The notes: generated from the letters alone by a model not told the origin. 64,000 nucleotides of DNA from Blasia pusilla (GCA_050084515.1 CM114271.1:29016001-29080000); one strand, 5' to 3'. Shown: positions 4,174 through 50,940, numbered from the stretch's first letter. Translations and numbers: made by a program.

Positions 4174-7049
<2,876 letters not shown>

Positions 7050-8434: not shown

Positions 8435-8819
8435 TTGACATATTTCCGATCAGATGAGCTGCATATGAGGGTGGTGCAAAGGAAGCATGTACATGAGGGT
8501 GGTGGGAAGGTAGCTTGTTAAAGGCGATGGTGCTTATGGGCAACTTACTAGTGTTAATAATTAAAAGATGTGTAAGTAGATAGAAAGAAGGCTAATGAAG
8601 GCGTCCACATAGTTTCCAAGAGCAGAATCGATAATTTCTGGTTATTTAAAGCCAGACACAAATTTTCCATGTGAATTCCAATTGAATAAATATTCACTTT
8701 ATTATAAAAACAAACCTCAAAAGAGGACAAAGAAAGGTAATAACATCTCAAAAGAAGAGTAAAAAAATGCATAATGGAATGAAAAAAGAAAATTGCAACT
8801 AGCCAACTGAAACACCAAC

Positions 8820-14000: not shown

Positions 14001-14409
14001 GTTGGCAGTCCGGGGATGGACGTATGAGCCAAGTTCCTGTGAGATTTATTTCTGGGGCTCGACCAGGAGGGTCTTCCCCAACAGTGTTAGCATTTGTGGC
14101 TGGTTTTAGTGGAGTAGTCATTTGGCCCGGAGACTTTTTGGAGGGTAATGTTTCTGCTATGGATTCTCCTGCGCATGAGGAGGTAGAGGAGGTCCCTATT
14201 TTTGCAGCAGTGGCATCCTCATCGTTGGATGTGCCACTTTGGAGTTCAGGCGGTGCACTACCGCAGGAGGCTGATCGCCTAGTGCATGAGGCTTGGTGTG
14301 AGGCTGTTATACCTCACGAGGAAGAGGAGTCCCTACGGCGGACTCCTACTTTTGGTCCAGCTGGGTTATCCCCTTTGGATACTACACCCATTGTATGGCA
14401 GTATCCGCC

Positions 14410-15360: not shown

Positions 15361-15769
15361 TGGCGGAGCAGCGTCGACTTCGGACTATGTCTGTGGGTCT
15401 TCCACCCTTGTAATGAGCTCGATGGCTACCGGGACGGTAGAGGCATCGGTCAGGCGAGGAGAGTAGTATTTTGCATCCTTGGAGTAAATGGGATGTAATG
15501 GTGGGCATGTGGAGTTGGTTGCTCATCTTTGGTGGCGGAGTTATTTGCTCGGATGATGGTGTAGCTAAGGGTGTACCATCTTGTGAGGGGGTTGCGAGCA
15601 GACCAATGGCATCGTCCTCTCCCTCTAGTGTGCGGTGGAGGAGGAGACTTGGGAGCTATTACTTGGGCCCAAGCTTACGGGAGGTGAGAAACGACGCTGA
15701 CACGCGGTTCCTACGTGCTTATAGGAGTTGTTTTGCCTTTAGCATGAAGGAGTTGGGTTCTCTGGTTGG

Positions 15770-17080: not shown

Positions 17081-17439
17081 CTAGCCAAGAGGATACAACG
17101 GGGCTAGATGGCATGGCGAGGTTGATGAGGAGATGGTGCCAGGTTGGCATGCATCCGCCTTTTTATGTTGGTTAGGGGTGGACTCTAGTATGGAGGACCA
17201 CATGATATCTTACTCTAGTCAGAGGGTAGATGGCCAGCCTTCAGATCCTAAGGTTGGAGATGGTGGTACGGATCAGCGTGATATTCATGATGATGCGTTG
17301 GTGTTGGAGTTCCTTCGGACCGGTAGGGTGCCAAGCATAGTGAGTGCCAAGGAGCGAGACCGTGTTCTTCAACGTGCTAAGAGGTATCGATTGGAGGGAA
17401 CACATATTCTCCGCGTGTGGGAGGATGGTAGAGTATGAG

Positions 17440-18720
17440 TAGTGCCACATTTGGCTCAGAGAGAGCGCATTGTGCGACATGCCCATGAGGAGTTGGGACA
17501 TTTTGGGATAAAGCGTACGTATAGCTTACTCCTTGGCCAGTATTGGTGGCGTGGCATGCATACTCAGGTGCAGCAGTTGGTGTCACGTTGTATGGTTTGT
17601 GACCGGGTGAGGGCATCATTTAATGCCCCTACACCACAATTACACCCCTTGCCTATTATGGGGTTGGGTTACCGTTGGAGTGTGGACTTTGCGGGACCGT
17701 TACCGTTGACTGTACGACATCATCGATATGTGTTGGTGATGGTGGAGCACTTCTCCAAGTGGATTGAGTTGGTGGCATTACCGGACAAGGCAAGTGAGGG
17801 AACGGCGTATGCATTTCTGGATAGAGTGCTTAGTCATTTTGGTGCACCAGCTGAAATCTTGACCGACCGAGTCTGAGTTTGGGTGAGTTTCAGGTCTTAT
17901 GTGACAAGGCGTTGATTGATCATCGGACCACGTCTCGAGATCATCCAGAGGCGGATGGTTTGGCTGAGCGTGTGGTTCGAGGCGGTGAAGAGGGCATTGC
18001 GCAAGTATGGCCTCTGAAGGGCATCTTGAGACAGGATATTCGGTTGCCATGGTTAGCCATGGGGTATAGGTTCGATCGCCAAGCATCCTTGGCTTCCTTC
18101 TCACCTTATTTTTACATTATCGGCCGAGATCCAAACTTGCCATCAGCAATTCGTCGAGTCTAGTGAGGTGGTGAACCTTGATGACCCGAGAGATGTGGAT
18201 GAGGGTGTGTTCTCGCGAGCGGAGCTCTTTCGGAGAGTTATGCCAATGACCTTTGAGAATCTTGCCATTGCTCAACACAGGGATACGTTGCGGTATGCAA
18301 CCATTCGGGGTGGAGGTTATCGACCATCGATTCGTAGGTTCCATGTGGGGGACTATGTCTATTTGCAGCAGATTGCCCCGACAACGTTGGATGTGACGGC
18401 AGCCGCACTATTTTACGAAGTGCGTGAGGTGTTAGCTTCCGGAGTTCTCATGTTGGAGGGTCGTGATGGAGTTGTTTGGAAGGACCATGTGCGTAATTGT
18501 GCGCCATGTCATCTTCCAAATGTGGATGGTACTGTTGACCCAAGCTTAGCCATGATACGTGCTAGCTTGAGGTGCATGTTGTGTGGGTCTGCTTGTAACG
18601 CAGCCTGACCCCGTATGTTGGTGTGTGATCGGTGTTCTAGGGGTTGGCACATGATGTGTTTGACTCCACGTTTGGATGTTGTTCCTCTTTGGAAGGTGGG
18701 TTTGTCCTCGATGTACTTAG
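17440..18720 (+). pseudogene. DDE integrase with C-terminal PHD finger
   Basis: HAHEELGHFG..CMVC zinc-binding domain; WSVDFAGP, EILTD, ADGLAER core; C-terminal CMLC..CDRC..WHMMC PHD at about 18570-18716. No tyrosine-recombinase ORF was seen. Confidence 0.9.
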
Positions 18721-18893
18721 GAGAGGTAGATGACTTGATCTTTGCATGATATGGATTACTGGATGTGCGACTAACGATGGGGCAACCTAGCACCCGGCCT
18801 TCGATTCGAGCACCCAAGAAGGTGTATAGCATGTAGTAGATGTATAGGGCTACCTGGGAGTTAGAGGACCTAACCGCTTGATTAGGGGGTCGA

Positions 18894-19476
18894 GTTGTGG
18901 TACACTTGCGTTTGTGGATACTCTCGTCTATGTTATGTATGTATGTGCGTATGGTATGTCAGCGATGTATGTTGTATGACGATGTGGATTCGCACGACAG
19001 TTGTCATGACCATACGGGATTATGTCGTAGAGTATGGTGTGCTAGTAGAGGCCATTCCTTATGTAGGACCGTAGTGGATTGGTAGAGATGCGGTTCCATA
19101 CATAGGGTTGGGGGTTACTCAGTTGGGGGTGACTTTCCCAGTAGGGCCCGCTCTTAGGTTGGAGGATATAAGGTGGAGTGCACTCAAAGAACAGTCAGTT
19201 CTTTGAGTTGAGCCTCTTGTGTTGGGAGTTAGCCTTGGTAGTGAGTAGAGCTCTTGGCTATGGTGTTTCCCGCAAGCTTCGACCTAGATTCTCCCATCGT
19301 GAAGTGGGTTTGGCTCGATTGTATGTGATTGTAAACGTGTTTTATGACACTAGGTCTTTCACGGATTTCAGTTGTGGTACACTTGCGTTTGTGGATACTC
19401 TCGTCTATGTTATGTATGTATATGCGTATGGTATGTCAGCGATGTATGTTGTATGACGATGTGGATTCGCACGACA
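18894..19476 (+). repeat. 3' terminal block: B1 (18894-18999), GT, A2 (19002-19370), B2 (19371-19476)
   Basis: B1 and B2 are 106-bp near-identical direct repeats. Junction reads CACGACA-GT-TGTCATG. Confidence 0.92.
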
Positions 19477-21170
19477 CCCCGCTCCGGTACACGCACATGA
19501 ACGCATAAGAGTTTGATGAGCGTCAAAGGATGCTTTCAAGAGAATGATGGAAAAGTTGATTTGGTGCAAATTCTCAAAGATATGCTCTTGAAGTCGATCA
19601 AGCCCTTTTGTAATCAATTGACTGAAAGAGGGGTAGAATTGCTTATGTAGCAAGAGGAAGAAGAGCTCTGGTTGATCTCAGTTGTTGATTAAATAAAAAG
19701 TCCCCCTCCTCTACATAGGCGACATGATCCATCAAGATGGGTGTATCTCTTTGGAGAAACCTTGAAGCCATAATCGGTGGTACCAAGGCCCAACTCCCCA
19801 AAAAAGCTGATGGAGCATATGCAACTGTGGAGGAAAGTCCCACCCGTCCAAAAGAAATAGGCAAGATAGCTTGTCGTGAAGCTAAGATATCATCCTCTCC
19901 CTTCAATGTATTCGGGCCAAGAAGTTGACCAAAAGTTGCCAAAATAGAAGCGTCAAAAGAGTTCAACCGATGTAAGAACCTTGAAGTGGGAGTCAAGTGC
20001 AAAAAAGGTAGGAAGGACGTCGTAGAAAATATTGGGAGAGAATCCCATAAGCCACTTGGGGATCCCCTAAATGAGGTAACAAATGAAGCCATTCCAGGTC
20101 TTTCAAAAGGGCCTCATCCAAGAATTTCGAGATATATCGGTGAAGCCAATTGGGACCCCAAGAACCCTAACCCCTAAAATGCAGATGAGAAAATCAAGAG
20201 CAGTCAGGGTGAATGTTGAGGGAAGTCATGAAGGAGACCATACTCCACATTTAGTAGGTTGGACTTTAAGGTTTAAGAAAGAGAGTTGCTCCACAAAATA
20301 GATATAAGCAGGAACCACTTCAAAAGGAGGAGCTATAATATGAGTGTCATCAGCAATAGAAGAGAAAAGACCAGATCGAAATGCTTGCGTTAATGCTCGA
20401 AAGGCACAAAATTAAATGGGCAATGGCAAAGAGTGGGTCATCCATGGGATCACGTTGACGCGTGCCACAAGCCGATTGAAGAATTCTATATTCCTAGAAG
20501 TAGCATGATGAGAATAGATAATGGGCGTATCATGGGCATAAGAGGAGCAAAAAATGGAATGAGACTTGCGAGTTGTCCTCTTGCACAACATAACTCCTCA
20601 AACATGGCCTCACGAGAAACTGAATTGAATTCGTTAGCCACATCGACTGGAATTGCTACCCACTCTCGGTGAATATCAAGAGTGGAGCGAATCCCATACC
20701 ACACCTCACAACCACCAAGAGTTGCCACTCCAAATTGATGAGGAAATAAGTGGGCACTAAAATGAGGATGAAATTGCAAGCACGGGGATCGACTAACCAA
20801 GCGGTATAAAACCTCTCCAATAGCCAAACGTGAGACACGTGAAGGAGGCTTATCCATAGCCAAAAAATGACAAGCCCCTAAGAGCCTAGGGATAGAGAAT
20901 GGGAGACGACTTGCCGCAATATCTGCACACACCTTATATAGTGAGACAAAGCCACTTCATGAATCTGCCTGGATAAAGCAATTGTGGAGATGCTCAAAAA
21001 CCATCCCTAATAGCCCGCTTGCTGATAAGTGAGGAGAATGAAGAAAAGCCCTTGTGAAAACCTCCAAGTCAAGCTCCATTGTATAGTCTTCCACAAAAGG
21101 TGATGCATTACCACTTGAAGGAAGGTGAAGAGCTTCTAAGAGAGCCACTGTGTCCGCACTTGGAACCGCC
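19477..21170 (-). pseudogene. RT-containing part of the CRE-like non-LTR retrotransposon
   Basis: RLAIGEVLYRL, PHQFGVATLGGCE, PVDVANEFNSVSRE, IADDTHI, RQAILPISFGRVGL, AFLGSW motifs on the minus strand, with stops and frameshifts. Confidence 0.75.
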
Positions 21171-31330: not shown

Positions 31331-33526
31331 CCTACTACGGGACCACCTAGTACATTACTTATAGCCTTAGGTTTGGATGTAACTTACAACTTGGGCTACG
31401 TTTGGATTGAGTGCCAAATAGGACACCAAAGTGAGGTGTCAGCATTTAGTTACATAACATAAAATGAAATTTATGATTTCCAAACAAAGAAAGAGGGAAT
31501 AATTTTTTTAGTTATGATATTCGGTGTATTAGTAGATGGTGAAGGGGATGTGAGCTTGTTTTAAATAAGAGGATTAAATTTATTTATGAAATGAATGGTT
31601 ATCAAATGAAGAAAAAGAAGAAATCCAAAAGGGAAGAAATTAAATTTAAAATCAAGAAGAGGAGGAATAAAAAGGGGAAGAGGATTGAAATAAGATATCA
31701 AAATATTATGGCTGTTAATCAAATCTCGTAATAAACTCTACATATAAAATATTTCAACTCTATTTAATTTTACCCTATATTAAGCTAAAAATTAATGGAA
31801 AAGAGGTTTTGGTAATTCTATTTATTTTAAGAATATACGTAAATTCTGTAAATTTTTATCAATTGTTATGAATTTTGTAAGTCTCCCTTAGTTTTTATTT
31901 ATTTCAAATTAAACATATTTCTAAATATTTTTGTAAAAAAATCGTGAAATTTTTTTATTTAAATTTTCGTTTCCAGTTCAATTTTCATTTTTTTAAAAGT
32001 GCAAGGATAACAAGAGAAGAGTGGAAAATTAATCATTCTTCAAAGCGATTTGAAGATTTAAATTTTTAAAATTTGGTTGTGAGGGATTTCTAGACCATAT
32101 TCTAAAAAAAGGAATGGAAAATATATTTTTATATTTTATTAATTGAGATATGGAGGTTGAAAAAATCTAATTTCCATATGAGTTAATAAGAAAATAAACA
32201 TGACATTTTAAAAAATGAAATAAAAAATTAATGATTATTAATATAGTTATATTTAAACATAAATTTATTTCGATATCAAAATTTATAAATTCAACCTGTA
32301 TCTTTATGGTTTCATTATCTATATTAATAAGAGAGGATGGGGTGAGAGAAACCCCTTGTGATGTTGACACATGTCCTTTCAAATCTCTTTTGCTTTTGAT
32401 ACTTGTCAAATTTGAAAAGTAGTTAAATTAAGATGACCAAATATTTTAGGGATGAAAACAATTTCATCTCACTCATGCATAGCAAGGGCATCATACTAGT
32501 ATTTTCTATTTGTGGGATTTCTCATTTCCAACAAATTACTAGTACTAACTTTTTGAGGAAGAAGAGACGATCACGCAGAAAAATTAAATACCCACTAAAT
32601 ATTCTTTTTGAAATGGAATTATTTAAGAACTAGTATAAATCCAATGCAATGCATAAATTAAATTATCTTTCATATTTAATTTCTAAATTTTTCAGATATT
32701 ATTTTAAGTTTAATTCTGAACAATTCCATGACTCATAGTAAGAATAATTTTATTCACTGCAAAAGTAAAAAATATCAAATTAGTAAAATGAAAGAGCACT
32801 TTCCAATAATATTATAGAAAAGAAGTTTTATTTAAAAAATTAACAATTTTTCATGCAATTCCAAACCTCATGCACAAGTAAATTTTTAACCGCTCTTATG
32901 GATACGTCGAAGTGTGTTAGGGCCATTCAACTACGGACTTCTAAGTCTCTCGAGAGTTTTGGTTACGGCGAATCCCGTCCAAAGAAACATGTCCCTAAAT
33001 AGTTGTGCCATTTTTGTAAATGGAGATTGTACACGGAAATAAATTTCTATGATATCAATAATAAATAGGATTGTAAAAGAGAGTGCCTTCTTGGTTTGTA
33101 GACACCTCTATACTTAACACAGAAAAAAACGTTTCTCTTTATCAGATAAAATTTTAAAAAATTTGTGCGCATCGTACGAAATTCTATAAAAAAAACTCTT
33201 CAAATTCTTATTTTACTCAGGTATTTGCTTAAGTGGTATTTGCCCTACTTATGTTGCTTAAGTGGTCCCCCTACGAAATCTCTTGCTTGAGTGGCCCCTA
33301 TGAACTGCCACGTCAGAGTTCCCACCGGTTGGTAGAAATGTTCTTTCTACGTAGTTACTGTAGCCCAAAAGTTTTGGATATAGGAACAATCCCGAGTTAG
33401 GGTTTGTCACTTTCGAGTTAGGACTGTTGATCATGCAAATCGTGATCAACACTCGTACTTACACTCTCAAGCACATGTTAATTTGTTTACTAATCAGTGT
33501 TTATTGTTCATAAGCTTGATTAGAGA

Positions 33527-36500
33527 ATGGATGGTGTGAAGCTACCCAAACATCCTGACCTCTCGTATACTGATGACGATTTTCCAGACTTGAGCAGACA
33601 ACATTTTCCTCTGGATGACAATGGATTTTTTGGTTCTAGTCGCAAAGACCAAAACTATGGATCTTATGAACGAAGGCCATCATCACTAGAGTCATCGGCT
33701 GCTTTCGAGTTATGGCGAGCCTCCACGTCCAAGAATGATCCCTGTCTCGAAGGGTTCAGCTTGGAAGAAGGTAAGATGACGCCGGGTTTAGTGGGCGTCA
33801 AAATAGCCGCCGAGATGGATACTCGATCCAGAAATGATGATTATTGTCGCAATAGCCGCCACCATAATCGAAATAGCCGCCGTTTTAGATTATTCGTTTC
33901 CTGAGAGGTGATCCTACTCAGAATAGCCGGAAAAATATCCGCCGTTGTAGTTATTTTGATTTCCTGAGATCTAAGCCTCCTCACACTATAGCCGCCGAAT
34001 TAGCTTCCGTGGTAGTTTTGTAGTTTTCCTTAGAGGGTCGCCTTCTCAAAATAGCGTCCGAATTAGCCGCCGTTGTAGTATTTTTGTTGTCTTGAGAGTT
34101 GAGCCTAGTCATAAGAGTGGTCGACTTAGCCGCATTTGTAATTGATTTCCTTTCTTGAGAGCTTAGCCTACTGAGAATAACCACCGAAATAGCCGCCGTT
34201 GTTGTTGTTTTGTTTTCATGAGAGGCGAGCCAACTCAGAATAGCCGCTAAGTCACCGAATTAGCCACCGTTGAAGATGTCTAACTTTCCCTAGAGGTGAG
34301 CCAACTCTGAATAGCCGCCGAATTATCCGCCGTTGTAGTTGTTTTGGTTTCGGGAGATATTGGGCTACTTAGAGTAGCCTCCGAAATAGCCGCCGTTGTA
34401 GTAATTTTGTTCTCTTCAAAGGTGAGGCTACTCAGAGTATCCTCCGTTGTAGTTGTTCGTACTCTTGATAGGTGAGCCTACTCAAAGTAGTTGCCGTTGC
34501 AGTAAGAGGTGATAGTACTCAGAATAGCTGCCTAAATAGCAGCCATTGCAGTTGTTTTGTACTCCTGAAAGGTCAGCCTACTCTGAATAGCCGCCGTTGC
34601 AATTGTTTTGTACTTCTTAGAGGTTAGCCTACTCACAATAGCCGCCGTAGTGGATATTTGGATGACATAATGTAAGTTTTCATTTACGATTTGTATCGGC
34701 GTGGCGTAGTCATCAGCCGCTGTGAAAGTTAGATTCATTAACAACCCTGGGTCATCATGTGCAGTAAGGAGGCATGCCGAGCGGATACAATTGAAGCAAG
34801 TGTTCCACAGCTTCGATGAGTTTGAGTTTTCACTAGATTGTTGGTGCTCGCTGAATTATAGAGCAAAGCATTGCGCACGCAACAAGAAATGGTATCGGCT
34901 TAGAATATGTAGATTTGGCGCAAAGATCAGAGGCAAAGGCCTTCCTATTTTCAATGAGAACAAACCCTCTAGCGGTTCGAAGACTTCAAGAAATGGACCG
35001 TATCCTAAGAGGGAGGATACTCTTGTGAAGAAATGTAGTTTTGTATGCCATGGTATTAACAACATGTCCGACACCGTAGGATTGGAGGAAAATATTCAGG
35101 AATATTCAACGGTTGCTAATCACAGTGGAAAAAAGTCGCACGATGTTAGGGAGAGGTCGGCGAACAATAGCACGGCGGTTTATGTCAACGAAGTTGCAGT
35201 TAATGTGTGTGGATCCTCTGTTGGAGATATTGGGGGACATAGTGTAGAATTTCAAGACCCACGTATCTCGAGGCTTGCATGTGGAATGGGGGTCCCGTGG
35301 AGACCTCAACATAGTAAGAGGCCTAACCAGCCAATTTTCAAGAATTCTTTCTCAGAACCTAGCGTAAGCTTAGACGTTCCCACGGAGAAAAGGAGAAAGA
35401 GTGGTGAAGCGAGAGTCCCCACCGCCAGGAATGGGGCATGTGGTCAATTTGCTAGGTACATACTTTCAAGGAAGGAGAATGGTACATCATGTAAAGATGA
35501 AGTTTGCGAGTGGAGGGTCCGTTGCCAACGGCATAAAAGTACATGCCTATGTGAGATAACGGTGTGTAATTTGAAACACACTTGCATTCACGGGCACATT
35601 CATACATGGAGGGGTCCTACCCACAAGGCAAAGTGGTTATCAATGGTATTAGCAGATAGGGTTGTAAACCAACCAAGCATCCTTGTAGGTAGCCTTGTAG
35701 AAGTCCTTGCGCAGACGTACAAGAAGCGAACAACTTACTTTCCTGCATGGAGATGCAAAGAAATATATCGGGATTGGATGAATAGAGGTGAACGAGTAGG
35801 TTTCCATTTGATTCCTTCTTTCATACAGGCAGTAAAGGAAGCCGACCCCTTTGCCACCTCCGCTTGGGATGTTTGGAATTTAGAATCTGCCATCGTCAAG
35901 AGGCTATTTATTTGTCCATCTGCCATGAAGAACATCATTCCTTATGTGCAAAAGGTAGTTGGCTTGGATGCATGCCATACAAAGAATAGGAAGTATCCCA
36001 TGCAGATTTTCATTGCGTCCATGTTGGATGGAAATGCCAATACGATAATTTTGGCATTTGGCATATCTCCTCTGGAGAACAATGAGGAATGGGAATGGTT
36101 TTGTGCACATCTGAAGAAAGCCATCCCAGCTTTAGATGATCCCAGAATTGTTATTGTTTCAAATAGACAAAAGAGCCTTTTACACGCCGTGCGTATAATA
36201 ATCCCCCAAAATATACATAGCATGTGTGGCCAACATTTGAGACAAAATGTTCGAACACGGTATGGAAAAGTTGTCGAAGGATTTTTCATTGCCCGCCTTT
36301 ACGCCATGACCTGGGAGAAGTAAGCAAACTATCCATTTCATTCTTCCTTACATTTTGCATATGGGAGTCTTGCATATTCAGTGAGGTGGAATATTGCATA
36401 GGCTGCGACTATTTTGGACTGCTCTTCTCTATAGGACGGCGGCTATTCACAGTAAAGACGATTGCTATTCCCTAAAGGACAATGGATAGTCACTGTTAGG

Positions 36501-38159
36501 ACGGCTGCTATTTCCTATTGGCTATTCACTGTTAGGACGGCTGGTAATTTGATACCTTGTTATGAGGACGGAGGCTATTCAGGAAAAATTCGGTATCTAG
36601 ATTCCAACCAATCTTTTTAGAACGGCGGCTATTTTCAGCTAAATTAGCATCTAAATTTGAACCCTTTGTGGACGGCGGCTAATGACAGATTATATTTCGA
36701 TTGCGCTATTCACAGTTATGCAGCGGCTAACAATGGCTAACAACAATTGAGGAACTTGTTTTCCAGGTATGACATGTGGATTAACAAATTGGAAAGGCAT
36801 CATATTCAACGAATAGCTGATGCAACCTCGTACATACGAGAGATAGGACAAGAGAAGTTTGCGAGGTGTGCATTCTCTTTGCCATGCTATGGCAAAGTGA
36901 GTTCAAATCTTGTAGAGGTCATAAATTCCGCCATCAAACCTATCAGGGAGGGACCTCCACTTGTCATTGCTCGTGAGTTGTGGAATTACATGATGAAAAC
37001 TTACGCATCAAGAAAAGTAGAGGCATGTCACCCAGAGAAGTTCTCCAACAAACTGACTACTTATGCACTTATTCGTTATCGAGAGAACGAAGCCAACTGT
37101 CAAAGTTTTGATGTACTAGCCTCAGATGCAAAAAATGCACTTGTCACTTCCACAAGTAGTGCACACCAATTTCATGTCCGCTTACATCCTGAGTGCAGTT
37201 GTTCATGCCTAGAGTTCCAAGATACTTGTTGGCCATGTACGCATGTAATGGCTTGGGATGTCATTACTGGAATGGACTCACAGAAACTTGTTGATCCTAT
37301 CTGGACCAATGACTTCATAAGGAAGATCTACAAAAGCAGTATACCGATTGTGAAGAGTGATGAACTTATACCATCTTGGGATTGCCGACCTGCCCTTCCT
37401 GCAGTTCGGCGTGGTAGATATCGTTATGTGCGCATTCCAAGTGGAAAAGGTGGCGAGATGCGAAGAGGACAAGGAGGTGGTAAAGAGATTTCTTATCCTG
37501 TACATGAAGATTTTTTGAATGAAGATGATGTTGGGAGTGGCCATCATGAGTATATCCCACAACGAGGTCCGTTAGGTATTCGTAACGGGCGTAGGGCACC
37601 AACGACAAGGGTTGCTCGCACTTTTGAAAGACGTTGTGGCCATTGTCCACTTCAAGGGCATAATCGGAAAACGTGCCAAGTGCTGAAAGCGGACCAACTT
37701 GTAGGGAGATCTATATCTGATGTCCCAACACGAAGACGTCCCGATGCAAGTCGGTTTCTAGGAGAGTATGGAAATCAGAGTAGGCTTTACTCAGGAGTGG
37801 AAAGTTTATATTCCCAAGAGACTAGAGCAGATACTACTGAAGAACTTAATGTAGAGGGTATTGTTGTATCAGGGGGAAATTTGGTGCAGTCTACCATGGA
37901 GAATGTTTCCACTCCCATGGATCTTGGTAATAGCCCCTCTAATCGCATACCAAATAGTCTAGTATTTCCGAGTGTTTCTCTTGTTTATGGGAAGTCTGAA
38001 TCTGATGAAGAGTCTGATGATTGTGAGGAGCAAAATACTGGCATATCCTTGGTAGAACTTGCTACTGATTCCCAGTGGAACCCAGAGGAAGAAGCATTTT
38101 ATATTAGTTTGGCAGAGGAAGTTGTGAAAGAATGTCAGATTTCAGAAAGAAATTTATAA
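33527..38159 (+). CDS. MuDR/MULE transposase, predicted 1063 aa. Exons 33527-33770, 34765-36319, 36767-38159
   Basis: C.WRV..C..HTC zinc motif, GLDACH, IVSNRQKSL, C.QHL, SSNLVE.IN, SWIM CSC..CWPCTH, knuckle CGHC..GHNRKTC. Both GT-AG introns splice in frame. Confidence 0.88.
33790..34720 (-). repeat. Tandem array of about 60-70-bp units with core AATAGCCGCC, filling transposase intron 1
   Basis: Recurrent CCTACTCAGAATAGCCGCCG(AAATAGCCGCCG)TTGTAGTT..TTTTG unit. Confidence 0.9.
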
Positions 38160-38444
38160 ACTCAAATGGAATTGTCATATGTAGCCCATTTGTTTCTTGG
38201 TATGCAAAATTATGATATTTGTTCATGTTGGAATGCAAAGTATGTTCTCAATGACGTATTAATGTTCATAAACCAAATGGACCAAACCATTCCCGGTTCA
38301 AGAACAAACAGGCTTGGAGTGACGCCTATTCTCCATGACTGCTAATCACAGGCCGAGAGCTAAATCACCAAACGCCTTTCCTCGCTCTTTCTGAGGCTTT
38401 TTTTTGTTTAACTCCCTTCCCTCCCTCTCCTCACTTCTCCGATC

Positions 38445-39230
38445 AAGCCCGGCGGCTATTCTCTGGACGGCTGCTATTTACAGGCCCGGCGGCTATTCTC
38501 GGGATGGCTGCTATTGACAGGCCCGGCGGCTATTGTCGGCACGGCTGCTATTCATAGGCCCGGCGGCTATTCTCGGGACGGCGGCTATTCACAGGCCCGA
38601 CGGCTATTTTCTAGGTAATTTGCTATTCACAGCAGCGGCTATTCTGGAATATTTGCTAATCACGATCCCGGCTAATCACAAATGGCGGCTATTTTCTGGA
38701 CGGCGGCTAATCACAGGCCGGCGGCTATTTTCAGGATGGCTGCTAATCACAGTCCGGCGACTATTCTCTGGACGACGGCTAATCACAGGCCGACGGCTAT
38801 TCTCTAGACTGCTGCTAATCACAGTCCGGCTATTCTCTGGACGGCGACTAATCACAGGCCGACGGCTATTTTCAGGACAGCTGCTAATCACAGTCCGGCG
38901 GCTATTCTCTAGACGGCGGCTAATCACAAATGGCGGCTAATCACAGGCCGGCGGCTATTTTCAGGACAGCTGCTTATCACAGTCCGGCGGCTATTCTCTG
39001 GACGGAGGCTAATCACAGGCCGGCGGCTATTCTCTAGACGGCTACTAATCACAGTCCGGCTATTCTCTGGACGGCGGCTAATCACAGGCCGGCGGCTAAT
39101 CACAGGCCGGCGGCTATTCTCTGGTCGGCGGTTAATCACAAATGGTGGCTATTTTCTGGACGGCTGCTAATCACAGTCCGGCGGCTAATCACAGGCCGGC
39201 GGCTATTCTCAGGACAGCGGCTAATCACAC
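38445..39230 (+). repeat. Minisatellite of about 18-20-bp units with core GGCGGCTAWT, downstream of the transposase
   Basis: Alternating CCGGCGGCTATTCTCTGGA / CGGCGGCTAATCACAGG units. Confidence 0.95.
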
Positions 39231-39600
39231 CCTCCCTCTCCTTCCATTTTATTTTCTTCTACACCCTCCCTCTCCTCCCTTCATGTTTCCTCCATTCCCT
39301 GCTTAATTTTTCCCTTCCCTTCCTTAATTTTCCTCCCTCTTCTTCATTTTTTTTCCTCTCCTCCCTTCATTTCTCCTCCATTCCTAGTTTTTCCTCCCTC
39401 TTCTTCAACTTTTTTCCTCTCCTCTATTCCTTCACTAATCTTAACCCCTTCAAATTTTTTCCTCTCCTCCCTTCATGTTTCCTCCATTCCCTACTTTATT
39501 TTTCCCTTCCCTTCCTTATTTTTCCTCCCTTCATGTTTTCTCCATTCCCTCCTTTATTTTTCCTCCCTCTTCTTCATTTTTTTTCCTCTCCTCCCTTCCT
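39230..39600 (+). repeat. Pyrimidine-rich imperfect tandem repeat
   Basis: Repeated CCTCCCTTCATGTTTCCTCCATTCCCT and TTTTTCCTCTCCTCCC. Confidence 0.85.
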
Positions 39601-40289
39601 CTCAAAATTTAGCCGCTGGTACAGAAGTGCGGCTAAGGGAGTCAGGCCGGCTTGCGGCTACGATGCGCAGAAGGGAGTCAAGCCCGCCTGCGGCTATTCT
39701 CTGGACAGAAGGGAGTCAAGCCGGCCTGCGGCTACGGTGCGGAGAAGGCAGTCAAGCCGGCATGTGGCTATAGTGCGTACTAGGGGACGGGCTGGCGTCT
39801 AGGTATGTAAATCGATCTTGGATATTGAATAGAAACCTAGAATGCATGCGCGCGAGTGGGGGACGGGCAGGCACGGCCAGGACGTGAGGCCAATTTTCAG
39901 ATTCAGATTTGAGATTTCAAATTTTAGGTCAATTTTCAGCTTTCACATTTCAGATTTGAGAGTGATGAAGGTCAAATGTGCTCTTGGGCCGCTTGCGATT
40001 GTAGAGCGCAAGCGGCTACTGTGCGGATTGGGGACGAGCTTTTCGGAAGATTGCGAATGTAGAGGGACGGCTGTCCTCTTGGGCGGATTGCGATTGTGGA
40101 GCTTTGGCGGCTAATGTGTGGATTTTGGACACTAGGGTCTCAAGTGCAGCCCGCGACAGGTTTGAGGTCAAATTGATGCCATTTGAAGTGAAATGCCGGG
40201 CTTGGGGTTTCAAGTTTTTGATTTTAGGTCAATTTGAAGCAATATGCTGTTGCAGATTTGGACGCAGGCGGGTAGATGCCTTTTTAGTA

Positions 40290-40630
40290 ATTTCAAGATG
40301 GTAGAAATTAGCCGCAGCCGGCGGCTAATTTCAAGATAGTAGAAATAGATGCCTTGTTAGTAATTTCAATATGGCAGAAATTAGCCGCAGCCGGAGGCTA
40401 ATTTCAAGATGGTAGAAATCAGCCGCAGGCGGCGGTTAATTTCAAGATGGTAGAAATTAGCCTGAGTCGGCGGCTAATTTCAAGATGGAGGTATGAGCCA
40501 CAGCCGGCAGCTAATTTCAAGATGCTAGAAACTAGCCGCAGCCGGCGGCTAATTTCAAGACGGAGGTATGAGCCGCTGCCGGCGGCTATTTTCTAGATGG
40601 TAGAAATTAGCCGCAGTCGGCGGCTAATTT
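40290..40630. repeat. Tandem array of about 37-bp self-complementary units GAAATTAGCCGCAGCCGGCGGCTAATTTC
   Basis: About 9 units; most contain the GCGGCTAAT core on both strands. Confidence 0.9.
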
Positions 40631-41875
40631 CTTGCAAAACTTCTTGGAGTTCGGGAGTTTTCATGCAGCCGGTGGTTAATTGATACAGCCGTTCATGGTG
40701 ACATTATCCTAGATGCGAGGCCTACGGGGACGTCAACTCTTCAATTTCGTGGCGATCAATGAGATCTCTTGCGAGTGGTTATGTGGCTCTTGGCTTATAT
40801 TTCGGAGATTGATTCGCAGGAAAAATGTCTCCAAATATTCCGGAGAGATTACTCAAAAGCGGTTCAGGCTGCCGCGCTTTCACGTTACTTTACTTTCCTT
40901 GCTGGTTCCTAACGTCACGCGGATGTACTCTTCTGCCGTGGAGAATGCTGCACTAACAGGTCTTTTCCGCTCACTACTATCTCTCAAGCAGAACGGTGAG
41001 GATGGGAAGGATAGGCAGTTGAGAGAAGGCAGGGCATCTTGTTTGTGTGGTACTTGCATCACTCACTACATATGATTTATAAGATTATTTTGAGATTCAG
41101 AGTAATTTGGAATGAAGCCAGTCAGATTGACCTCATGGCAACTCATGATAATCACCCTCCCAGAATAAGACCAAGGAATGAAGAAATTTTCTGCAGAGTT
41201 GAGATTTCTTAAAATCCATTCTCGTTAACTTTGGTGTGGACTCTGGAGCGTCACGCTTCCTGGAACAGCTTAAATACACCTCTGAACATTTGGTTAGAAT
41301 GCATTCAGAATCACGTCATGACCCTTTTCGTTGCCTCCATAGGCTCACACGGAAGGCACTCTGTTGTTCTCTGTTGTTATAATCATCAGCCAAAAAGAAG
41401 GGGAAGAAGAAGAAAGGGGGACCTGTAGAGACTGCTGTGAATAAGGAGATACGCTTTACGATTGGAGTTTTGCTACTTCAATGCTACATTGACCTCTGCA
41501 AAGGCTTCATTTGGGTAACTTCACTACCTTTGCTTGTATAGCCAATGCCACTTGTCTTGAGCCTCCATGAGATGCAATGTTTTCTTGGATTGCTCACAAT
41601 CACCAGAAGTTCTGGCCATCAAATTGTATATCTTCTGTGTTTGGGTGCAAAAATCTCAATTTACACTTAATTTCATTATCAGTGGTTTATGTAAATACAC
41701 AGATAGATTTTTTGCATGGTCCAAGCTCTTGTAATGATTTTTCATAAAACTTTTCAACCACTTCTTAGAAAGCAAGAACTTATTCTGTACTGATATTATG
41801 TGTATGCAGATGCTTGCAGCATTTATTGCTGATCACAAAATTGTGTATCGTGAAACAATTTTCAATTCTAAGCTA

Positions 41876-42681
41876 GAGGTATGAGGGCTTTGACAGTACT
41901 TCTTTGTATTTTATACTTTCTAAGAAATCCGGTAATTTTCTTTGTTATTTTTTCTAACTGGGCAGGTGGACAGTGTCTCCTTATGAATTGGGATGACTGC
42001 TTAGTCATGTCAGATGGGGACTCCAGAAGCCCCTGACATATCCTCTTGTGTGGGACTTGTATCTTTTTTCCCCTGCAAAGATTCACTCAAAGATTTGAGG
42101 TTTCCAAAACATCACTGACAGCTGATTCCTCAGCAATTGAAGTTGGACTATCGACCATAGGACCTGAACTTCCCTCCGGTAAAGCCTCAGGTACAGAGTC
42201 CTTGGGTAATTTGACTCGGGCAGATTTTGGTTTATCATCTGCTCTTCTGATCTCTGGTATCGGCTAATATCAAGATGGTAGAAATTAGCCGCAGCCGGCG
42301 GCTAATTTCAAGATGGAGGTATGAGGGCTTTGACAATACTTCTTTGTATTTTATACTTTATAAGAAATCCGGTACTTTCCTTTGTTACTGTTTCTAACTG
42401 GGCAGGCGGCTATTTTCTTATGGATCGATGCTCAATCATGTCAGATGGGGACTCCAGAAGTGCCTGACATATCCTCTTGTGTGGGACTTGTATCTTTTTT
42501 CCCCTGCAGAGATTCACTCAAAGATTTGAGGTTTCCAAAACATCACTGACAGCTGATTCCTCAACAATTGAAGCTGGATTATCGACCATAGGACCTAAAC
42601 TTCCCTCGGTAAAGCCTCGTCTGAGTCCTTGGGTAATTTGTTAGGCGAAGGGAGTCATCTCGCACTTCGATCTCTGGTATC
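41876..42681. repeat. Tandem duplication (period 440 bp) with a motif-array filler at the junction
   Basis: 41876-42261 is similar to 42316-42681; 42262-42325 matches the 40290-40630 array. Confidence 0.85.
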
Positions 42682-43242
42682 CGAGGACGGTAAATCTGCT
42701 GAATGCAATTCAGAATTGTCTTTGGATGAAACTTCCTTTGCTACGTCTATGCAAATGGCATTTGTTCTTGTATCTCATTCTTCATGTTGACATCTGTCTT
42801 TTTGGCAGACGAATCCACGGATCTACATAAAGGATCGGACTTCCCACAGGTGCATACTCCTCTACTAGTGTCAGATGAAACTACATGCTTAATTCCACCG
42901 GCAGTAGAATATGATACTTCTGTTCCATGACCGACCATCTCTACAGCACTACATTCCAAAGGGCTACTTATATATACTTTTCTGTACCACTTCCAACCCC
43001 AGCTAACCCAGGTTCTCCTGAACGTGGGTTAGCTGTCGTCACATCTGGATCAAGACTTCCATGTGATTTATTCGCTCTCACAGAACTCCATTGGAAGTAC
43101 TTCACATTCTATGTTTGTATTCACCAAGGGCTATACCCTCCCATTGATAAGAGTTGTCACTGATGTGCTTAGTTGGGTTTGGTGCATTTACCATACTAAC
43201 ACGAAAATTAATTTCTTGCAGGGACGACATCTAAGTCAAGCT

Positions 43243-46200
43243 ATGGAAGTAGGGTTCCTATTAAAAGATGTCGTTTATCGGACAGACTTTGCTAGGTTGG
43301 AGGAAGATGTAGATAAGGACATGGCTGTTACCATGGGAGTCGTTGGAGTGTGGGAGGTGGATTGGACCGTCTGTGATAAGGATATGGTCATAAACTTCTT
43401 GAGCACGTTCAACCCCGACACTTCAGAGGGGATGCTTCGACGAATCTACGGGCATACAATGTCACAGTATGCGTTATGTATCTCCACAACTCATAGCAAA
43501 TGCTTTCCAATTCAAACACCTTGGCTCATTCTTATCTATGGAGCGCCAACACACTGATCAAGAGGAGCCAAGAATTTATTCCAAGTACCTCACCAAGCTC
43601 GACAAGAATAGCCACGGATACAAGCTAGGGTGTGTTGTGCCAGAGAACTTTCGGGCAATCCTATTACAACTGAATCGTTGCTTTCATATGAAAGCAAACC
43701 CCGAGTGTGTCCCTGCAAGCATGTTATCAATGGCATGTCGGGCTTGGGAAGGGATTCCGGTGGATTGGGCAAGCTATGTCTACAGGAAACTCATGCTTGA
43801 TATCAGGAAAGTCCTCCGACCAAGAGCCAAGAGAGAGAAAGTGAGAGAAAGCGGAGTTGGAGTTATTTTGACCATTCTCTTCAACCATGGCGATGATCTG
43901 ACCTCACATGAGGTGACTGTAGCAGAGGCTGCCCTAGTATCGGATCCGAAATTGAAAGGGAAGGCAAAGCTGAGTGGGACTCCACCGACCGAGCCCAAGA
44001 ATCCTCGGAAGAGGAAAATTGCAGGAAAGGAGGAGAGTGAGCCCAAAGACAAATCATAGCGATTGCGCATAAAACTGAAGCTACCTACCAAAGACACTAC
44101 TACAGGGAAGGCACAAACTTCAGATGATAGCGATGATTTCATTGCTCAAAAGAAAATACCGAGAAATAAGAGTTCCTCACATGGAGCCGGGAAGGAGCTT
44201 CCACAATCGCAGGTGAAGAATCCGAAGTCTCGGCCAAAAACCCAAGGAAAGAAGAAAGTGAGGGTTCTAACCATTTCTATTCATTTTGTTTTAGTTTCTT
44301 GGCTATATGCATGAACGGCGGCTATTCATAGCCCAGGGCACTTGCAAGCATTAACATGCGGCTAAATTGTAGACTAATAGCAGCCGGCGGCGGCTATTCA
44401 CAGCCTTTGCACAAGGATGCCAGAATGAACCGGCGTCTATTATAGCAGAAGCCCGCGGCTATTTTAATTCTCTGGATGGCGACTAAGAGCAGCCGCCGGT
44501 GACTATTAAGCGCGCCTTTGGACAAGGCTACCAGAAAGAGTCGGCGTCTATTCTAGCACATGGGGGCGACTATGCACTCTCTTTGGACAAAAAAAAATAG
44601 CAGGCGGAGGGGGGCTATTCACAACCATTGTACAAGGTCGGCGGCTATCCACAGCGTTTGGGCAAGGCTACTAGCTTACACAAGGCTGCCTACACTTTTT
44701 TTTGTTTTCTTTATATGTAAATATAACTTTTGGGGTTCATTGGTGTGTACTAGGGGACGTCTACACTTCCAGCAAAAGGAGACGTCATTCGGATTGGACT
44801 GAGGGCTAGCCCTCAGTCCAATCCGAATGACACTCACACCAACAGGCATGATTCACCTTCACCTGTACATGGAGTGAAGAATGGAGAAAGCAAAGGGAAT
44901 GAGCAACGGAAGGATGGTATCGATGGCTTGGATTGGCAAGAATTTGGGAACTTGCCTGAATGGAACACTCAGAAGGTAGGAGGTTGGGAAGTTCCCAATG
45001 TTTCTCAGTTCGGGCCTTCACAACACCGTAGAGAGTCTCTAGGCACAACAAGGAAAGACACGGCAGATGCACCTATGAAGAACACTACAGAGGGCCCTCA
45101 TGGGAATATGGCAAGCGGCACACCACGTGCTCACCCTACAACAACGACCAAGGCCCATCTTTTCGTGGAGCCTATGGTGATTACCCGAGGCTCTCAAACC
45201 ATGGACAAGTTTCTTGTGAACAGAATGAGTCAAACTGACCATATGTTCACAGTGGATCAACAATTGCAAATAGATAGTATCCCTGAGGTGCATATGGTTA
45301 ACCACTTATGCCAGACTGAGAGCGTGTACCATGTGAACAACTATGTGCAAACTGAGGACTCCACATGGTGGTTGAATCACATGCGGTCCAAAGCGCTAGC
45401 AATGGTTCCAACACGCGGTGCTCCACAACCCAAACCATCAAGTGAAGATGGTGTACTCCCTAATGCTAGGGGAGCTGAAGGTTTGGACGGAAAAGAAGAT
45501 GGGCTCAAATCACAGAAGGTATTATACCAATCTTCAATTTCCCATCTTCCTTAATATGGCCTCTATTCTCCAATCGTTGTTCACAAATTGCAGTAAGTTC
45601 TTATGGATTTTTGGCATCCTCAGTGGAGGAGTCAATGTATAGGTGAAGGTTTACTCTATACTTGTTGGATTGTCCCTAAACCCTATCCAAAAATCCTTAG
45701 TGATCACAACCGGCGCCTATTCACTGTGGGCGGCTATTCACACAGCCTTAGTATCACAACCGGCGGGTAAACATAGCCGGCGCCTATTCATAGTGGGCGG
45801 CTATGCACACCCAATGCCAATTCACATTTGGCGGCTAAGCACAAAGTGGGGCTAATCACACATGACGGCTTTTTTCCATTGTAGGTTATTTCATGTACAC
45901 ATTCCGTTTGTCTTTGGATGTAGGGACCAACGGAAGAAGTACGAGAGGAAGACCCGAGTGTGCCACAAGGAGGGTTTCTGATTGATGAGAGAATCATACA
46001 ATTGTGGATTAACTATTTGGGGATGCCCGCGGAAGATGTGGTGCATTTGGAGTGTTGGGAGGACAAAATTCATCTCACTGAACGAACCACAGCTAGAGTA
46101 GACAAGTATGTTGAAGTCCTGGAGCTAAGGCACGCAACTCTTCTCGCTGAAAGAGGAGATCTCATTACAAAGTTAGGAGTGACCGGCTATGACAACAAAG

Positions 46201-46394
46201 GTGGGTGGGAAGAAGCCTTGCCTAGAGTGACAACCTTGCAAGATTCGGCAGCAAGGAATTCACAGTTTATTCGTGATCTCTTGAGTAGGCTAGGTGTGTC
46301 ATCAGACGGCTTGGACGAGGCATCCTGTTTCTCCAGGGTTCTAGTGGCTATTTTTGACTTGCAGCGGTTGGATTCTTCAGGTCCAAGCATGTAA
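43243..46394 (+). pseudogene. Accessory gene of the MULE, unknown function. Predicted exons 43243-44257, 44754-45518, 45924-46394; one frameshift (about 43460) and one stop (44057-44059)
   Basis: Phase-0 GT-AG junctions join the ORFs in frame. N-terminal region (VINFLSTF..IANAF..VDWASYV) loosely resembles plant-transposon accessory domains (Athila ORF1/PMD-like), followed by a basic NLS-like tract PRKRK, QT repeats and a helical C-terminus. Confidence 0.6.
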
Positions 46395-46539
46395 TAAATC
46401 TTTGTAAAGTTCCTTTTTGTTTTATGGTGAAACGGTGATCACATCCATGTTGTATAATGTATGTGAAGCGCTGAAATTTGTGCACTTCCACCCCAAACCC
46501 TACAACCTGCGTCTAAAACGCTCACCAGCCTTGTTTTAG

Positions 46540-46810
46540 CCGCTAGAATGCCATGACACACTGGAGCTGCGGCTACAACCTGCGGCTAACTCCAAACCCT
46601 AAACCTACGGCTAAAACCTGCGGCTAAAACCTGCGGTTAAATTGGTCCATCCTCTCCCCCTTGGCTGAAACTTCATCAGCTCACTGCAATGCCATGACAC
46701 ACTGGAGCTACGGCTAAAACCTGCGGCTAAATCCAAAATTCCACCCTAAACTTGCGGCTAAATTGGTCCCTCCTCTCCCCCTTGGTTGAAACTTCAGAAC
46801 TTCTGCGGTT
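46540..46810 (+). repeat. Subterminal repeats with CTGCGGCTAAA and a duplicated segment of about 140 bp
   Basis: AATGCCATGACACACTGGAGCT..GCGGCTAAATTGGTCC..CCCCTTGG occurs twice. Confidence 0.8.
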
Positions 46811-47723
46811 AAGTGCAAAGGTCTACTACTATGGAAATGGTGCTAGAACAATTACCGGACTTCCCGGTAGCTCATATCCCATGAACAGGGTGTTGTAGGT
46901 AAGAGCCCCACTCAAGCAAGAGATTTCGTAGGGGGGCCACTTAAGCAACATAAGTAGGGCAGGGGGCCACTTAAGCAAATACCTGTATTTTACTTCCCGT
47001 GCATGACATAGGAACTAGGATTAATTATTCAAACGACAATGTCCCCCTCCCCGTGGGGAAGAATTATTCCATCCACAAACAACCAACCGTCGCGTCATCA
47101 TCCCATCTACGGCGCAGCGATCCTCTAAAGACAATCTCACGTTTCTACGGTCCCACAAGCACCACAAGAACGAACTGTGACACGAGCGTGCCACCGCTCT
47201 GCGTTGCGGTGGCACAAATCTCGTACTTGGAGCCACGTTAGTTTAACCTAAACTACGCGCCACTTGGTTCTGCATTTATGATCCGACTGCAGTTGAGCAG
47301 AGACAACCACGGCACAAATCCAGATTCCGGACTCCTTCCCCTCACTACGGCTGCGATGCTTGGAGTCGCCGCAGTAGGGACTTCGGTCCTCGGCGCCCCA
47401 GCCAGAAATAGATACGTGGTTTGGAACAGAAGTCGGGAGTCCGCAGTAGCGCTACGGTGGTCGCTAGCTAAGTGGCGTGCTTCCGCACATCCAAGTGCCC
47501 CATGAGAGAAAGGAGAGGGAGAGGGGAGAAAGAGAAGGAAGGAGAGACACACAAAATCCTTATCGCCGATTTGTGCCAGTGATCCATCCATTCAGCTTCG
47601 CTCCGGGTGCTGCGGTGGTGGTGGTGGTATTTGAAGCGAGGAGTGGGGTTTGTGAAGTCCCTTTGCTGTTCTTCTCGCTTCGTTCCGTTGGTAGTGTGTC
47701 CAGACAAGAGAGAGTGTGTCGCC

Positions 47724-50940
<3,217 letters not shown>

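Follow-up and report, generated by a model that had tools for sequence, protein, structure and literature searches.

A short motif in differently built non-coding arrays of a young Mutator-like element: possible binding sites for an element-encoded protein

Why does one transposon hold the same short motif in arrays that are built differently each time, and which protein, if any, would read it? An earlier note on this locus had placed a Mutator-like element (MULE) at 33218..46985 and had proposed a system analogous to VANC of Arabidopsis, in which the product of an accessory gene is the binder. Our repeat and alignment analysis of the 64-kb window (the whole stretch of DNA that was analysed) found a complete 13.8-kb copy with exactly these borders, 33218-46985, marked by target-site duplications (TSD) and terminal inverted repeats (TIRs) as follows.

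33209..33217, no strand: left target-site duplication, TATTTTACT; the same 9-mer flanks both ends
33218..33294, plus strand: left TIR, 77 nt, inverted-repeat pair I1, full alignment
46908..46985, minus strand: right TIR, 78 nt; it repeats the three 12-mers of the left TIR
46986..46994, no strand: right target-site duplication, TATTTTACT

The TSD is a perfect 9-bp TATTTTACT, within the 9-11 bp range of MULEs, and pair I1 showed 98% identity across 54 nt. Each TIR holds three copies of the 12-mer TTGCTTRAGTGG, those of the left TIR at 33225, 33254 and 33283 (29-nt spacing), and the rest of the window has none. GCGGCTA was searched in both TIRs and was not found. The TIRs and the TSD, together with a MULE transposase domain, place the element among the MULEs. 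CACTA elements have a 3-bp TSD; here the TSD is 9 bp, the termini read CAGG..., and the arrays are mostly internal, which is not the pattern of Spm/CACTA elements with TnpA. An Hsp70 gene lies nearby, with the element about 700 bp upstream of it.

This MULE is young, and its transposase gene is undamaged: three exons give an intact spliced ORF of 1063 aa with one terminal stop.

33527..33770, plus strand: transposase exon 1; ATG at 33527, ORF; donor backed by an RNA junction, frame continuing into exon 2
33771..34764, plus strand: transposase intron 1, with array A1; RNA splice junction, GT..AG
34765..36319, plus strand: transposase exon 2, which encodes the MULE domain PF10551
36320..36766, plus strand: transposase intron 2, with cluster A2; inferred from GT..AG and a fitting phase
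36767..38159, plus strand: transposase exon 3; ORF, whose translation shows a SWIM-like CxCxnCxH and, towards the C-terminus, a CCHC knuckle

The splice from 33770 to 34765 (GT..AG) was carried by 46 first-mate-minus reads from three RNA runs, and the array at 33790-34720 is intronic, as had been claimed. Exon 2 matched PF10551 in Pfam (E = 1.2e-11, 45.3 bits against a cut-off of 27.6) and had an RNA depth of 19-43, with reads from a relative 95-99% identical. Downstream of the catalytic domain, the match to SWIM (PF04434) was weak (E = 0.032, 14.2 bits, under the cut-off of 19.6), and the CxCxnCxH pattern is present in the translation.

The remaining coding and transcribed parts lie further along the element.

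41385..43020, no strand: probable captured host-gene fragments (RNA reads, blastn)
43243..44257, plus strand: accessory exon 1; ATG at 43243, ORFs in two frames, exon end inferred
44258..44803, plus strand: accessory intron 1, with A6; contig boundary at AG/44804
44804..45560, plus strand: accessory exon 2; ORF 44754-45554, 3' boundary approximate
45561..45923, plus strand: accessory intron 2, with A7; inferred
45924..46394, plus strand: accessory exon 3; 156-aa ORF

RNA reads over 41385-43020 probably came from loci elsewhere, with sharp loose ends at six places and a splice from 41513 to 41809. Such ends and such a splice fit mRNAs of parent genes, which suggests that the segment probably consists of captured host fragments, a Pack-MULE feature. 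It also holds an internal duplication of 350 nt (41864-42213 against 42304-42640, 88% identical), in which one A5-type unit is embedded at 42261-42325.

The accessory gene lies on the same strand as the transposase gene, with ORFs of 218, 266 and 156 aa. It is broken in the window copy: the frame shifts near 43480, an in-frame stop occupies 44057-44059, and the exon borders 44257 and 44804 are out of phase with each other. Relatives' contigs do not have the frameshift, and one has 2 extra bases behind 43480. Sense RNA over the gene was at most 1.3x in three RNA runs, and the low signal was mostly antisense.

The accessory gene had been called unknown, and our searches agree. No Pfam family was found for the accessory protein with five ORF pieces at E <= 0.1, and a 271-aa accessory read-through, with X at the break, matched nothing in Pfam at E <= 10. 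Thus neither DUF1985 (PF09331) nor DUF287 was found, nor any recognisable DNA-binding domain in Pfam. Among 1.84 billion proteins there was no credible homologue; the single database match was rejected as a spurious repeat protein. A phmmer search against PDB chains, a set not confirmed to include 9LNK, gave chance-level matches only (SETMAR, Src; E >= 0.48). Language-model comparison gave a weak lead to PMD and DUF1985 clusters (0.85-0.87), which the N-terminal piece did not repeat. The protein has K/R-rich stretches resembling nuclear-localisation signals, and its exon 3 product is predicted, at low confidence, to be mainly helical; AlphaFold models were too poor for use (pLDDT 38 and 48).

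We counted the motif, whose core is (C)GGCGGCTAWT with GCGGCTA as the most constant part. Exact GGCGGCTAWT gave 42 matches in the window, all within the element (span 33802-45738), against an expectation of 0.06, and 0 of 100 shuffles reached 42. Allowing one mismatch gave 86 matches, 85 of them inside 33218-46985; the sole outside match is at 16472, so that the 50 kb outside the element, two host genes included, contain 0 exact matches and 1 near match. The 7-mer GCGGCTA occurs 70 times inside the element and twice in the window outside it, and the element has 49 GGCGGC hexamers. The motif had been described as largely absent from exons and outside DNA, and a count in exons versus non-coding parts had been suggested. 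That count left no exception among exons: the inferred exons (5,435 nt) contain 0 of the 85 matches and 0 of the 70 7-mers, and the non-coding element DNA (8,333 nt) contains all of both. By compartment, there are 16 matches in transposase intron 1, 5 in transposase intron 2, 48 in the spacer 38160-41384, 3 in 41385-43242, and 8 and 5 in accessory introns 1 and 2. In transposase intron 1 the motif is on the minus strand; in the other places the plus strand predominates. The 43 single-mismatch variants differ at positions 1-6 (n = 39) or position 10 (n = 4), and never at positions 7-9 (TAW).

The motif or its reduced core lies in the following arrays and clusters, two of which are separated by a CT-rich block.

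33790-34720, transposase intron 1: array A1, 16 minus-strand matches with up to one mismatch; units 50, 51 and 71 nt long
36400-36740, transposase intron 2: cluster A2, 5 matches, 50-67 nt apart
38445..39230, plus strand: array A3, about 42 units of 18 nt, GGCGGCTATTCTCTGGAC alternating with GGCGGCTAATCACAGGCC
39231..39600, plus strand: CT-rich low-complexity block, 20-23-nt units, zero CpG
39610..39780, plus strand: array A4, 36-nt units (repeat span 39626-39777), reduced core TGCGGCTA
40288..40631, plus strand: array A5, built of 38-nt units that form head-to-head dyads, GAAATTAGCCGC-AGCCG-GCGGCTAATTTC
44315-44670, accessory intron 1: cluster A6, 8 irregular matches, one head-to-head dyad at 44376/44389
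45700-45870, accessory intron 2: array A7, 5 matches, units of about 50 nt (repeat span 45695-45790)
46540..46810, plus strand: array A8, 3' subterminal, 13-nt units CTGCGGCTAAAAC (repeat span 46567-46641), reduced core only

In two of the eight arrays named in the earlier note, A4 and A8, no exact GGCGGCTAWT was found, and variants of the shorter TGCGGCTA take its place. Unit lengths do vary as described, from 13 to 113 nt across at least eight arrays, on both strands and in direct and head-to-head layouts. The repeat periods are 18/36 nt in A3, where RNA depth was 0 in every run, and 38/75/113 nt in A5; the tandem-repeat finder made no call at A2 or A6 (44315-44670), both of which are irregular. 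Family copies also differ in their arrays: reads revealed an extra 38-nt unit at 42270-42307 and a rearranged 46614-46733, and contigs depart from the window sequence inside A1 and A5.

The flanks had been said to differ while the core is kept. This is correct for A1, A5 and A8, whose flanks are unrelated and which have the core alone in common. However, GGACGGCGGCTATTCACAG strings of 14-19 nt are common to A2, A3, A6 and A7, and part of the sharing may therefore reflect common descent. When nine motif regions were compared (the eight arrays and the 42255-42420 copy), the longest common string included at least part of the core in 36 of 36 pairs. Within A3, mismatches per site were 0.04 in the core versus 0.15 in the spacer for T-type units, and 0.08 versus 0.04 for A-type units. 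The core is thus not consistently better kept than the spacer, and an argument for constraint has to be drawn only from sharing between arrays; units inside one array are not independent, so counts overstate the number of events. The CG dinucleotides are mostly intact, as claimed (CpG observed/expected about 1.0 in arrays versus 0.4-0.7 in exons), but this is uninformative on methylation, because the amplified motif itself contains CG and the element is young.

The arrays may be sites, particular to this family, at which the accessory protein of intact copies binds and acts like VANC or TnpA. We consider this possible and prefer it tentatively, given that the motif is confined to non-coding DNA of the element, that one core recurs in separately built arrays, that mismatches spare TAW, that the TIRs have a signal of their own, that a second coding region lies on the same strand, that arrays vary among family copies, and that VANC and TnpA offer a precedent. 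Against it stand the accessory protein, in which no DNA-binding domain is recognisable and whose gene is broken and barely expressed here, the uneven conservation within A3, and the flanks common to four arrays. The core would have been gained repeatedly in non-coding DNA through local tandem-repeat formation, and a DNA-binding protein of the family, distinct from the activity by which the transposase binds the TIRs, would dock at these dense clusters. Its likeliest source would be the gene at 43243-46394, whose product would be supplied by intact family copies because the accessory gene of the window copy is broken. Binding would mark cognate copies and lead to lost silencing marks or transcriptional activation, as for VANC on VANDAL21 and TnpA on Spm. 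Since the TIRs have a different 12-mer without GCGGCTA, the element has two cis-signals, and a second DNA-binding specificity for the internal motif is plausible. The data show how the element is built, how the motif is distributed, that one array is intronic and that arrays vary among family copies; binding by a protein, the choice of binder and the effect of binding are plausible inferences.

According to PMC5735166, VANC21 recognises YAGTATTAY sites in the introns of VANDAL21 and in its intergenic and terminal non-coding parts, these targets evolve as tandem repeats form, and VANC brings about a loss of methylation that is sequence-specific. This matches what the earlier note had said of this literature. 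VANC is described as dicot-specific in PMC13547354, where the solved structure of VANC21 (PDB 9LNK) is cited. As described by Hosaka et al. (2017, PMC5735166) and Sasaki et al. (2023, PMC10398659), VANDAL21 resembles our element in belonging to the Mutator superfamily, in having a transposase and an extra gene, and in a 9-10-nt motif that lies in introns, intergenic and terminal non-coding parts, not in exons, with tandem repeats varying between copies. However, binding and demethylation are established there and putative here. The motif here is GC-rich with CG rather than AT-rich, there is one extra coding region, not two, and the 77-nt TIRs are clear. To our knowledge, VANDALs have no long TIRs. 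The proposed VANC-like system is thus borne out in its layout, in which non-coding arrays of different build have a short core in common and the TIRs a separate 12-mer, but not by the accessory ORF, which is broken in this copy, barely covered by sense RNA (<= 1.3x) and without detected DUF1985, DUF287 or a credible homologue.

Spm TnpA also has a 10-nt CG-containing motif and is an element-encoded non-catalytic regulator, as the putative binder here may be; it requires dense motif clusters, and cluster density decides which copies are targeted (bioRxiv 10.64898/2026.08.24.746577). However, Spm/CACTA is another superfamily, and TnpA motifs are terminal, whereas those here are in introns and the central spacer, with only the variant A8 subterminal. 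Like our element, maize MuDR is a MULE with TIRs that encodes, besides a transposase, an accessory protein specific to its lineage and without known domain (MURA, MURB). Transcription of its two genes starts at the TIRs and is convergent, whereas both genes here are on one strand, and we know of no amplified internal motif in MuDR. MURA and MURB have been reported to interact (PMC12973397).

The motif could instead be read by no protein. A GC-rich minisatellite unit would then have been copied around the non-coding DNA, for example by template switching in gap repair or unequal exchange, and expanded locally. The absence from exons would be expected anyway, because arrays there would destroy genes; the flanks common to A2, A3, A6 and A7 and the pattern within A3 agree with such copying, and the A5 unit inside the duplicated segment means that units do move within the element. 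We nevertheless find this account somewhat unlikely: it needs at least eight separate seedings of one core in varied unit lengths, both orientations and dyad forms, while A1, A5 and A8 have the core alone in common and TAW is invariant among near-matches.

It is also unlikely that the transposase binds the internal motif by a second DNA-binding specificity. The arrays would then serve activation or hypomethylation mediated by the transposase, or the assembly of a transposition complex, and some other role would fall to the accessory protein. AtMu1c, likewise a MULE with TIRs, shows sequence-specific self-activation, and its transposase alone causes sequence-specific hypomethylation and activation of cognate copies; however, its binding sites, as described, are in TIRs and not in internal arrays, and it is described without an accessory gene (bioRxiv 10.64898/2026.08.24.746577). 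Long variable N-termini of MULE transposases (PMC12973397), an intact transposase with a close relative transcribed at depth 19-43, and an accessory gene that is broken and barely expressed would suit this explanation. Against it, the TIRs here have a different triple 12-mer and lack the amplified motif, and the intron arrays are up to 3 kb away from the closer end, which sets them apart from known transposase sites.

A host transcription-factor site, with arrays as enhancers coupling element transcription to a host signal, is quite improbable: although the motif includes, in reverse complement, AGCCGCC, which we take to be the GCC box bound by AP2/ERF factors, the GGCGGC hexamers are frequent, the Hsp70 gene is near, and stress-responsive retrotransposons with tandemly repeated host sites offer a precedent, GGCGGC is the variable half of the motif and TAW does not vary, A4 and A8 retain TGCGGCTA and lose GCCGCC, and the DNA outside the element, with its two host genes, is nearly free of matches.

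To return to binding by the accessory protein, we regard a stronger form of it as doubtful: a convergent anti-silencing or self-activation module, sequence-unrelated to VANC, in which CGGCGGCTAWT clusters, re-created by the element in its introns and spacers, are recognised by an orphan accessory protein whose DNA-binding fold is new, perhaps in a host lineage without known VANC-type systems. Sequence-specific anti-silencing by transposons has already been shown in Arabidopsis for VANDAL/VANC, Spm TnpA and AtMu1. The present element would be a second MULE lineage with VANDAL-like cis-architecture, with an accessory protein without detectable VANC domains, and it would test the repeated origin of motif arrays together with their binder. 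It would offer a candidate new 10-nt motif/protein pair for targeted epigenome editing and a signature to search for in other genomes, namely one core in many differently built non-coding arrays. If the convergent module is real, co-evolution of a regulator with its tandem-repeat targets would be a general Mutator strategy and not a dicot peculiarity.

The earlier note had placed the borders of the element at 33218 and 46985, and both are exact, with CAGGTATTTGCTTAAGTGG... beginning at the left border and its reverse complement ending at the right one. The two TIR arms measure 77 and 78 nt, and a 5-nt patch is the sole difference between them. The 9-mer TATTTTACT flanks the element on both sides as a target-site duplication of the length usual for Mutator elements, and all structural tests applied identify a MULE. 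Each TIR contains the 12-mer TTGCTTRAGTGG three times with 29-nt spacing (33225-33294; 46908-46978), and this 12-mer is absent from the rest of the 64-kb window. Judged from the sequence, the triplets are likely bound by the transposase, and they differ from the internal motif. A metagenome scan with the double-12-mer pattern of the TIR gave 12 loci, of which none showed blastn similarity to the element, and the total of GCGGCTA in those loci was 1.

The internal motif was strongly concentrated in the element. Exact GGCGGCTAWT was found in 42 copies, all within 33802-45738, where 0.06 were expected for the 64-kb window. When one mismatch was allowed, 85 of the 86 matches in the window lay inside the element, and the 7-mer GCGGCTA had 70 copies inside and 2 outside. 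Each of the commonest 8-, 10- and 12-mers of the element was either contained in this core or extended it. The scarcity of the motif in exons, which had been noticed by eye, was borne out by the counts, since the inferred exons (5,435 nt) contained none of the 85 matches and none of the 70 7-mers. The arrays were also found to be differently built around one core, with varying unit lengths, strand and arrangement.

Motif arrays of the element
A1, transposase intron 1: 50-, 51- and 71-nt units, motif on the opposite strand
A3, 38445-39230: 18-nt units, two types alternating
A4, 39610-39780: 36-nt units
A5, 40288-40631: 38-nt units, each a head-to-head dyad
A7, accessory intron 2: units of about 50 nt
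A8, 46540-46810 (3' subterminal): 13-nt units
A2 and A6, transposase intron 2 and accessory intron 1: two irregular clusters

Some claims held only in part. The core had been described in all eight arrays, but A4 and A8 lack the exact 10-mer and carry only TGCGGCTA variants. The flanks do differ between arrays, except among A2, A3, A6 and A7, which have up to 19 nt in common (GGACGGCGGCTATTCACAG); this would mean either that the full site exceeds 10 nt or that these four arrays have a joint ancestry. The CpGs of the core are intact as observed, but this is a by-product of amplifying a CG-containing unit, and we rejected the preserved CpGs as an indicator of hypomethylation because the argument is circular.

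We compared nine motif regions in pairs (the eight arrays and the copy at 42255-42420), and the longest string common to two regions included at least part of the core in 36 of 36 pairs. The base directly before the motif was C in 70 of the 85 matches, and positions 7-9 were changed in none of the 43 single-mismatch variants. The pattern thus suggests a core constrained across arrays. Because the units of one array are mutual copies, the arrays (about eight to ten) give a better estimate of the number of independent events than the 85 matches do. Within A3, mismatches per site in core and spacer were 0.04 vs 0.15 for T-type units and 0.08 vs 0.04 for A-type units, which gave no consistent signal of selection on the core. 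It is conceivable, if rather doubtful, that the arrays reflect the neutral spread of a minisatellite seed.

The ORFs at 34710-36323 and 36741-38159 encode the transposase, with a MULE domain (PF10551, E=1.2e-11) as well as a weak match to SWIM. Intron 1 was set by RNA: 46 reads from three runs with the same species label skip 33771-34764 (GT..AG), and their first mates map to the minus strand, as those of the plus-strand Hsp70 gene do in these libraries. Intron 2 is inferred at 36320-36766 from GT..AG and matching phase. The spliced frame comprises 1063 codons with one stop, which is terminal. All RNA reads of exon 2 carried fixed differences from the window sequence; therefore, the transcribed copy is a relative 95-99% identical and not this copy. 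Eight synonymous and 21 nonsynonymous changes made up the best-supported 29 differences of exon 2 from this relative (191 further differences lay outside the tally), and there was no sign of purifying selection among these 29 in this N-terminal part of the transposase. The RNA depth drops from 19-43 to 0-3 past about 35842 (35842-38159), where the transposase ORF continues, which probably reflects truncation or rearrangement of the expressed relative beyond this point, or an identity below 95% there. The protein search for transposase relatives gave a single match, a 1085-aa Ulp1+MULE protein with 29% identity over 37% of the query, and in metagenomes 39 pattern matches gave no confirmed relative.

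In MULEs studied so far the transposase binds the TIRs, as is reported for AtMu1c (bioRxiv 10.64898/2026.08.24.746577). The presence of two repeated signals, the terminal 12-mer and the internal 10-mer, together with this TIR binding by a MULE transposase, hints at a second protein. The motif arrays may be a binding-site system for a second element-encoded protein, which would have a VANC-like or TnpA-like regulatory role. We favour this reading, but tentatively, because the binding is putative and the candidate, an orphan, is disrupted in this copy. Binding of the internal motif by the transposase itself, for which the TIR triplets are the predicted site, seems unlikely. Host-factor sites are quite improbable, and the GCC-box-like half of the motif is its variable half, which counts against ERF factors in particular.

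The candidate for the second protein is the product of the accessory gene (43243-46394), a stretch filled on the plus strand by ORFs of 174, 218, 84, 266 and 156 aa. The 174- and 218-aa ORFs lie in two different frames and overlap in this copy; in a relative's contig, two additional bases after 43480 would merge them into a single frame, and the window copy is thus frameshifted. This copy also has an in-frame TAG at 44057-44059. A contig boundary (AG|44804) marks an accessory exon start, whose phase is mismatched with the inferred donor at 44258. Sense RNA did not exceed 1.3x in any of the three RNA runs, and the faint RNA over the gene was mostly from the opposite strand with a peak near the right TIR. 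Low-level RNA at 45982-46995 (depth 0.4-4.3, first mates on the plus strand) corresponds to transcripts of the minus strand, directed from the right TIR into the element and antisense to the accessory ORF.

No Pfam domain was found in the five separate pieces (E<=0.1) or in the 271-aa read-through with X at the break (E<=10). The protein search gave no homologue for accessory exon 2 among proteins of near length or for exon 3 among longer ones, and PDB sequences gave only chance-level matches. A single phmmer match of the 218-aa piece among 1.84 billion representatives, a 31-residue stretch of a 377-aa internally repeated protein, was judged spurious. AlphaFold without an alignment gave models too poor to use (pLDDT 38.0 for the 218-aa piece, 48.2 for exon 3). 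In a language-model search, the nearest to the 218-aa piece were Streptophyta clusters named plant mobile domain (PMD) and DUF1985 (0.85-0.87, a lead-only level by the tool's own rating; 124-133 features in common), and the N-terminal 80 aa gave nothing relevant and did not repeat this lead. This lead is of interest since PMD-C is reported to resemble the DUF1985 domain of VANC in structure (bioRxiv 10.1101/2024.09.27.615353; PMC13547354), but it is not evidence of membership.

Other sequences are present within the element. RNA reads 95-100% identical cover 41385-43020, with sharp ends at 41385, 42095, 42099, 42708, 42866 and 42972, a splice at 41513|41809 and a strand switch from plus (41419-41925) to minus (41926-43446). 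The region 41385-43020 looks like host-gene fragments taken up by the element in a Pack-MULE-like manner, and the reads would stem from the parent genes. A 350-nt direct duplication (41864-42213 / 42304-42640, 88% identical) has one 38-nt A5-type motif unit (42261-42325) between its copies. Between A3 and A4, 39231-39600 consists of CT-rich degenerate 20-23-nt units (TCCCTTC-type) with zero CpG and zero RNA depth.

The window also contains two Hsp70 genes, Ty3/Gypsy remnants and spliced GT..AG introns. The Hsp70 genes (4072-7049 and 47583-50940) lie on the same strand with 79% identity over 582 nt in the first coding exon, and the MULE is about 700 bp upstream of the second. Their upstream regions share no similarity, so the first paralogue offers no empty-site comparison. 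Within 1-1950, the remnant of a Ty3/Gypsy pol with RNase H, integrase zinc-binding and integrase core domains precedes an ORF (1498-1950) that encodes a PHD finger (PF00628, E=5.7e-12) at the position where a chromodomain is usual in chromoviruses. The GC skew is strongly positive (0.2-0.3) across most of 1-20000, where plus-strand Gypsy RT and integrase ORFs are located.

Sites of the Ac type are subterminal. TnpA sites are likewise subterminal (bioRxiv 10.64898/2026.08.24.746577), whereas the internal motif here lies in introns and spacers along the entire element, like the VANC21 targets (PMC5735166). The RNA reads and contigs of other family copies have an additional 38-nt unit at 42270-42307, are rearranged at 46614-46733 and depart from the window sequence within A1 and A5. 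Therefore, the arrays vary between family copies, as is reported for those of VANDAL21 (PMC5735166). In the literature covered we found no MULE with this architecture beyond Arabidopsis and its relatives; the 2022 EMBO J work on eudicot VANC co-evolution lies outside this coverage and may bear on novelty. Because the domain searches recovered no VANC domain, the element is not demonstrable as a member of the VANC family; judged by its motif layout, it resembles a VANC system in cis-element design.
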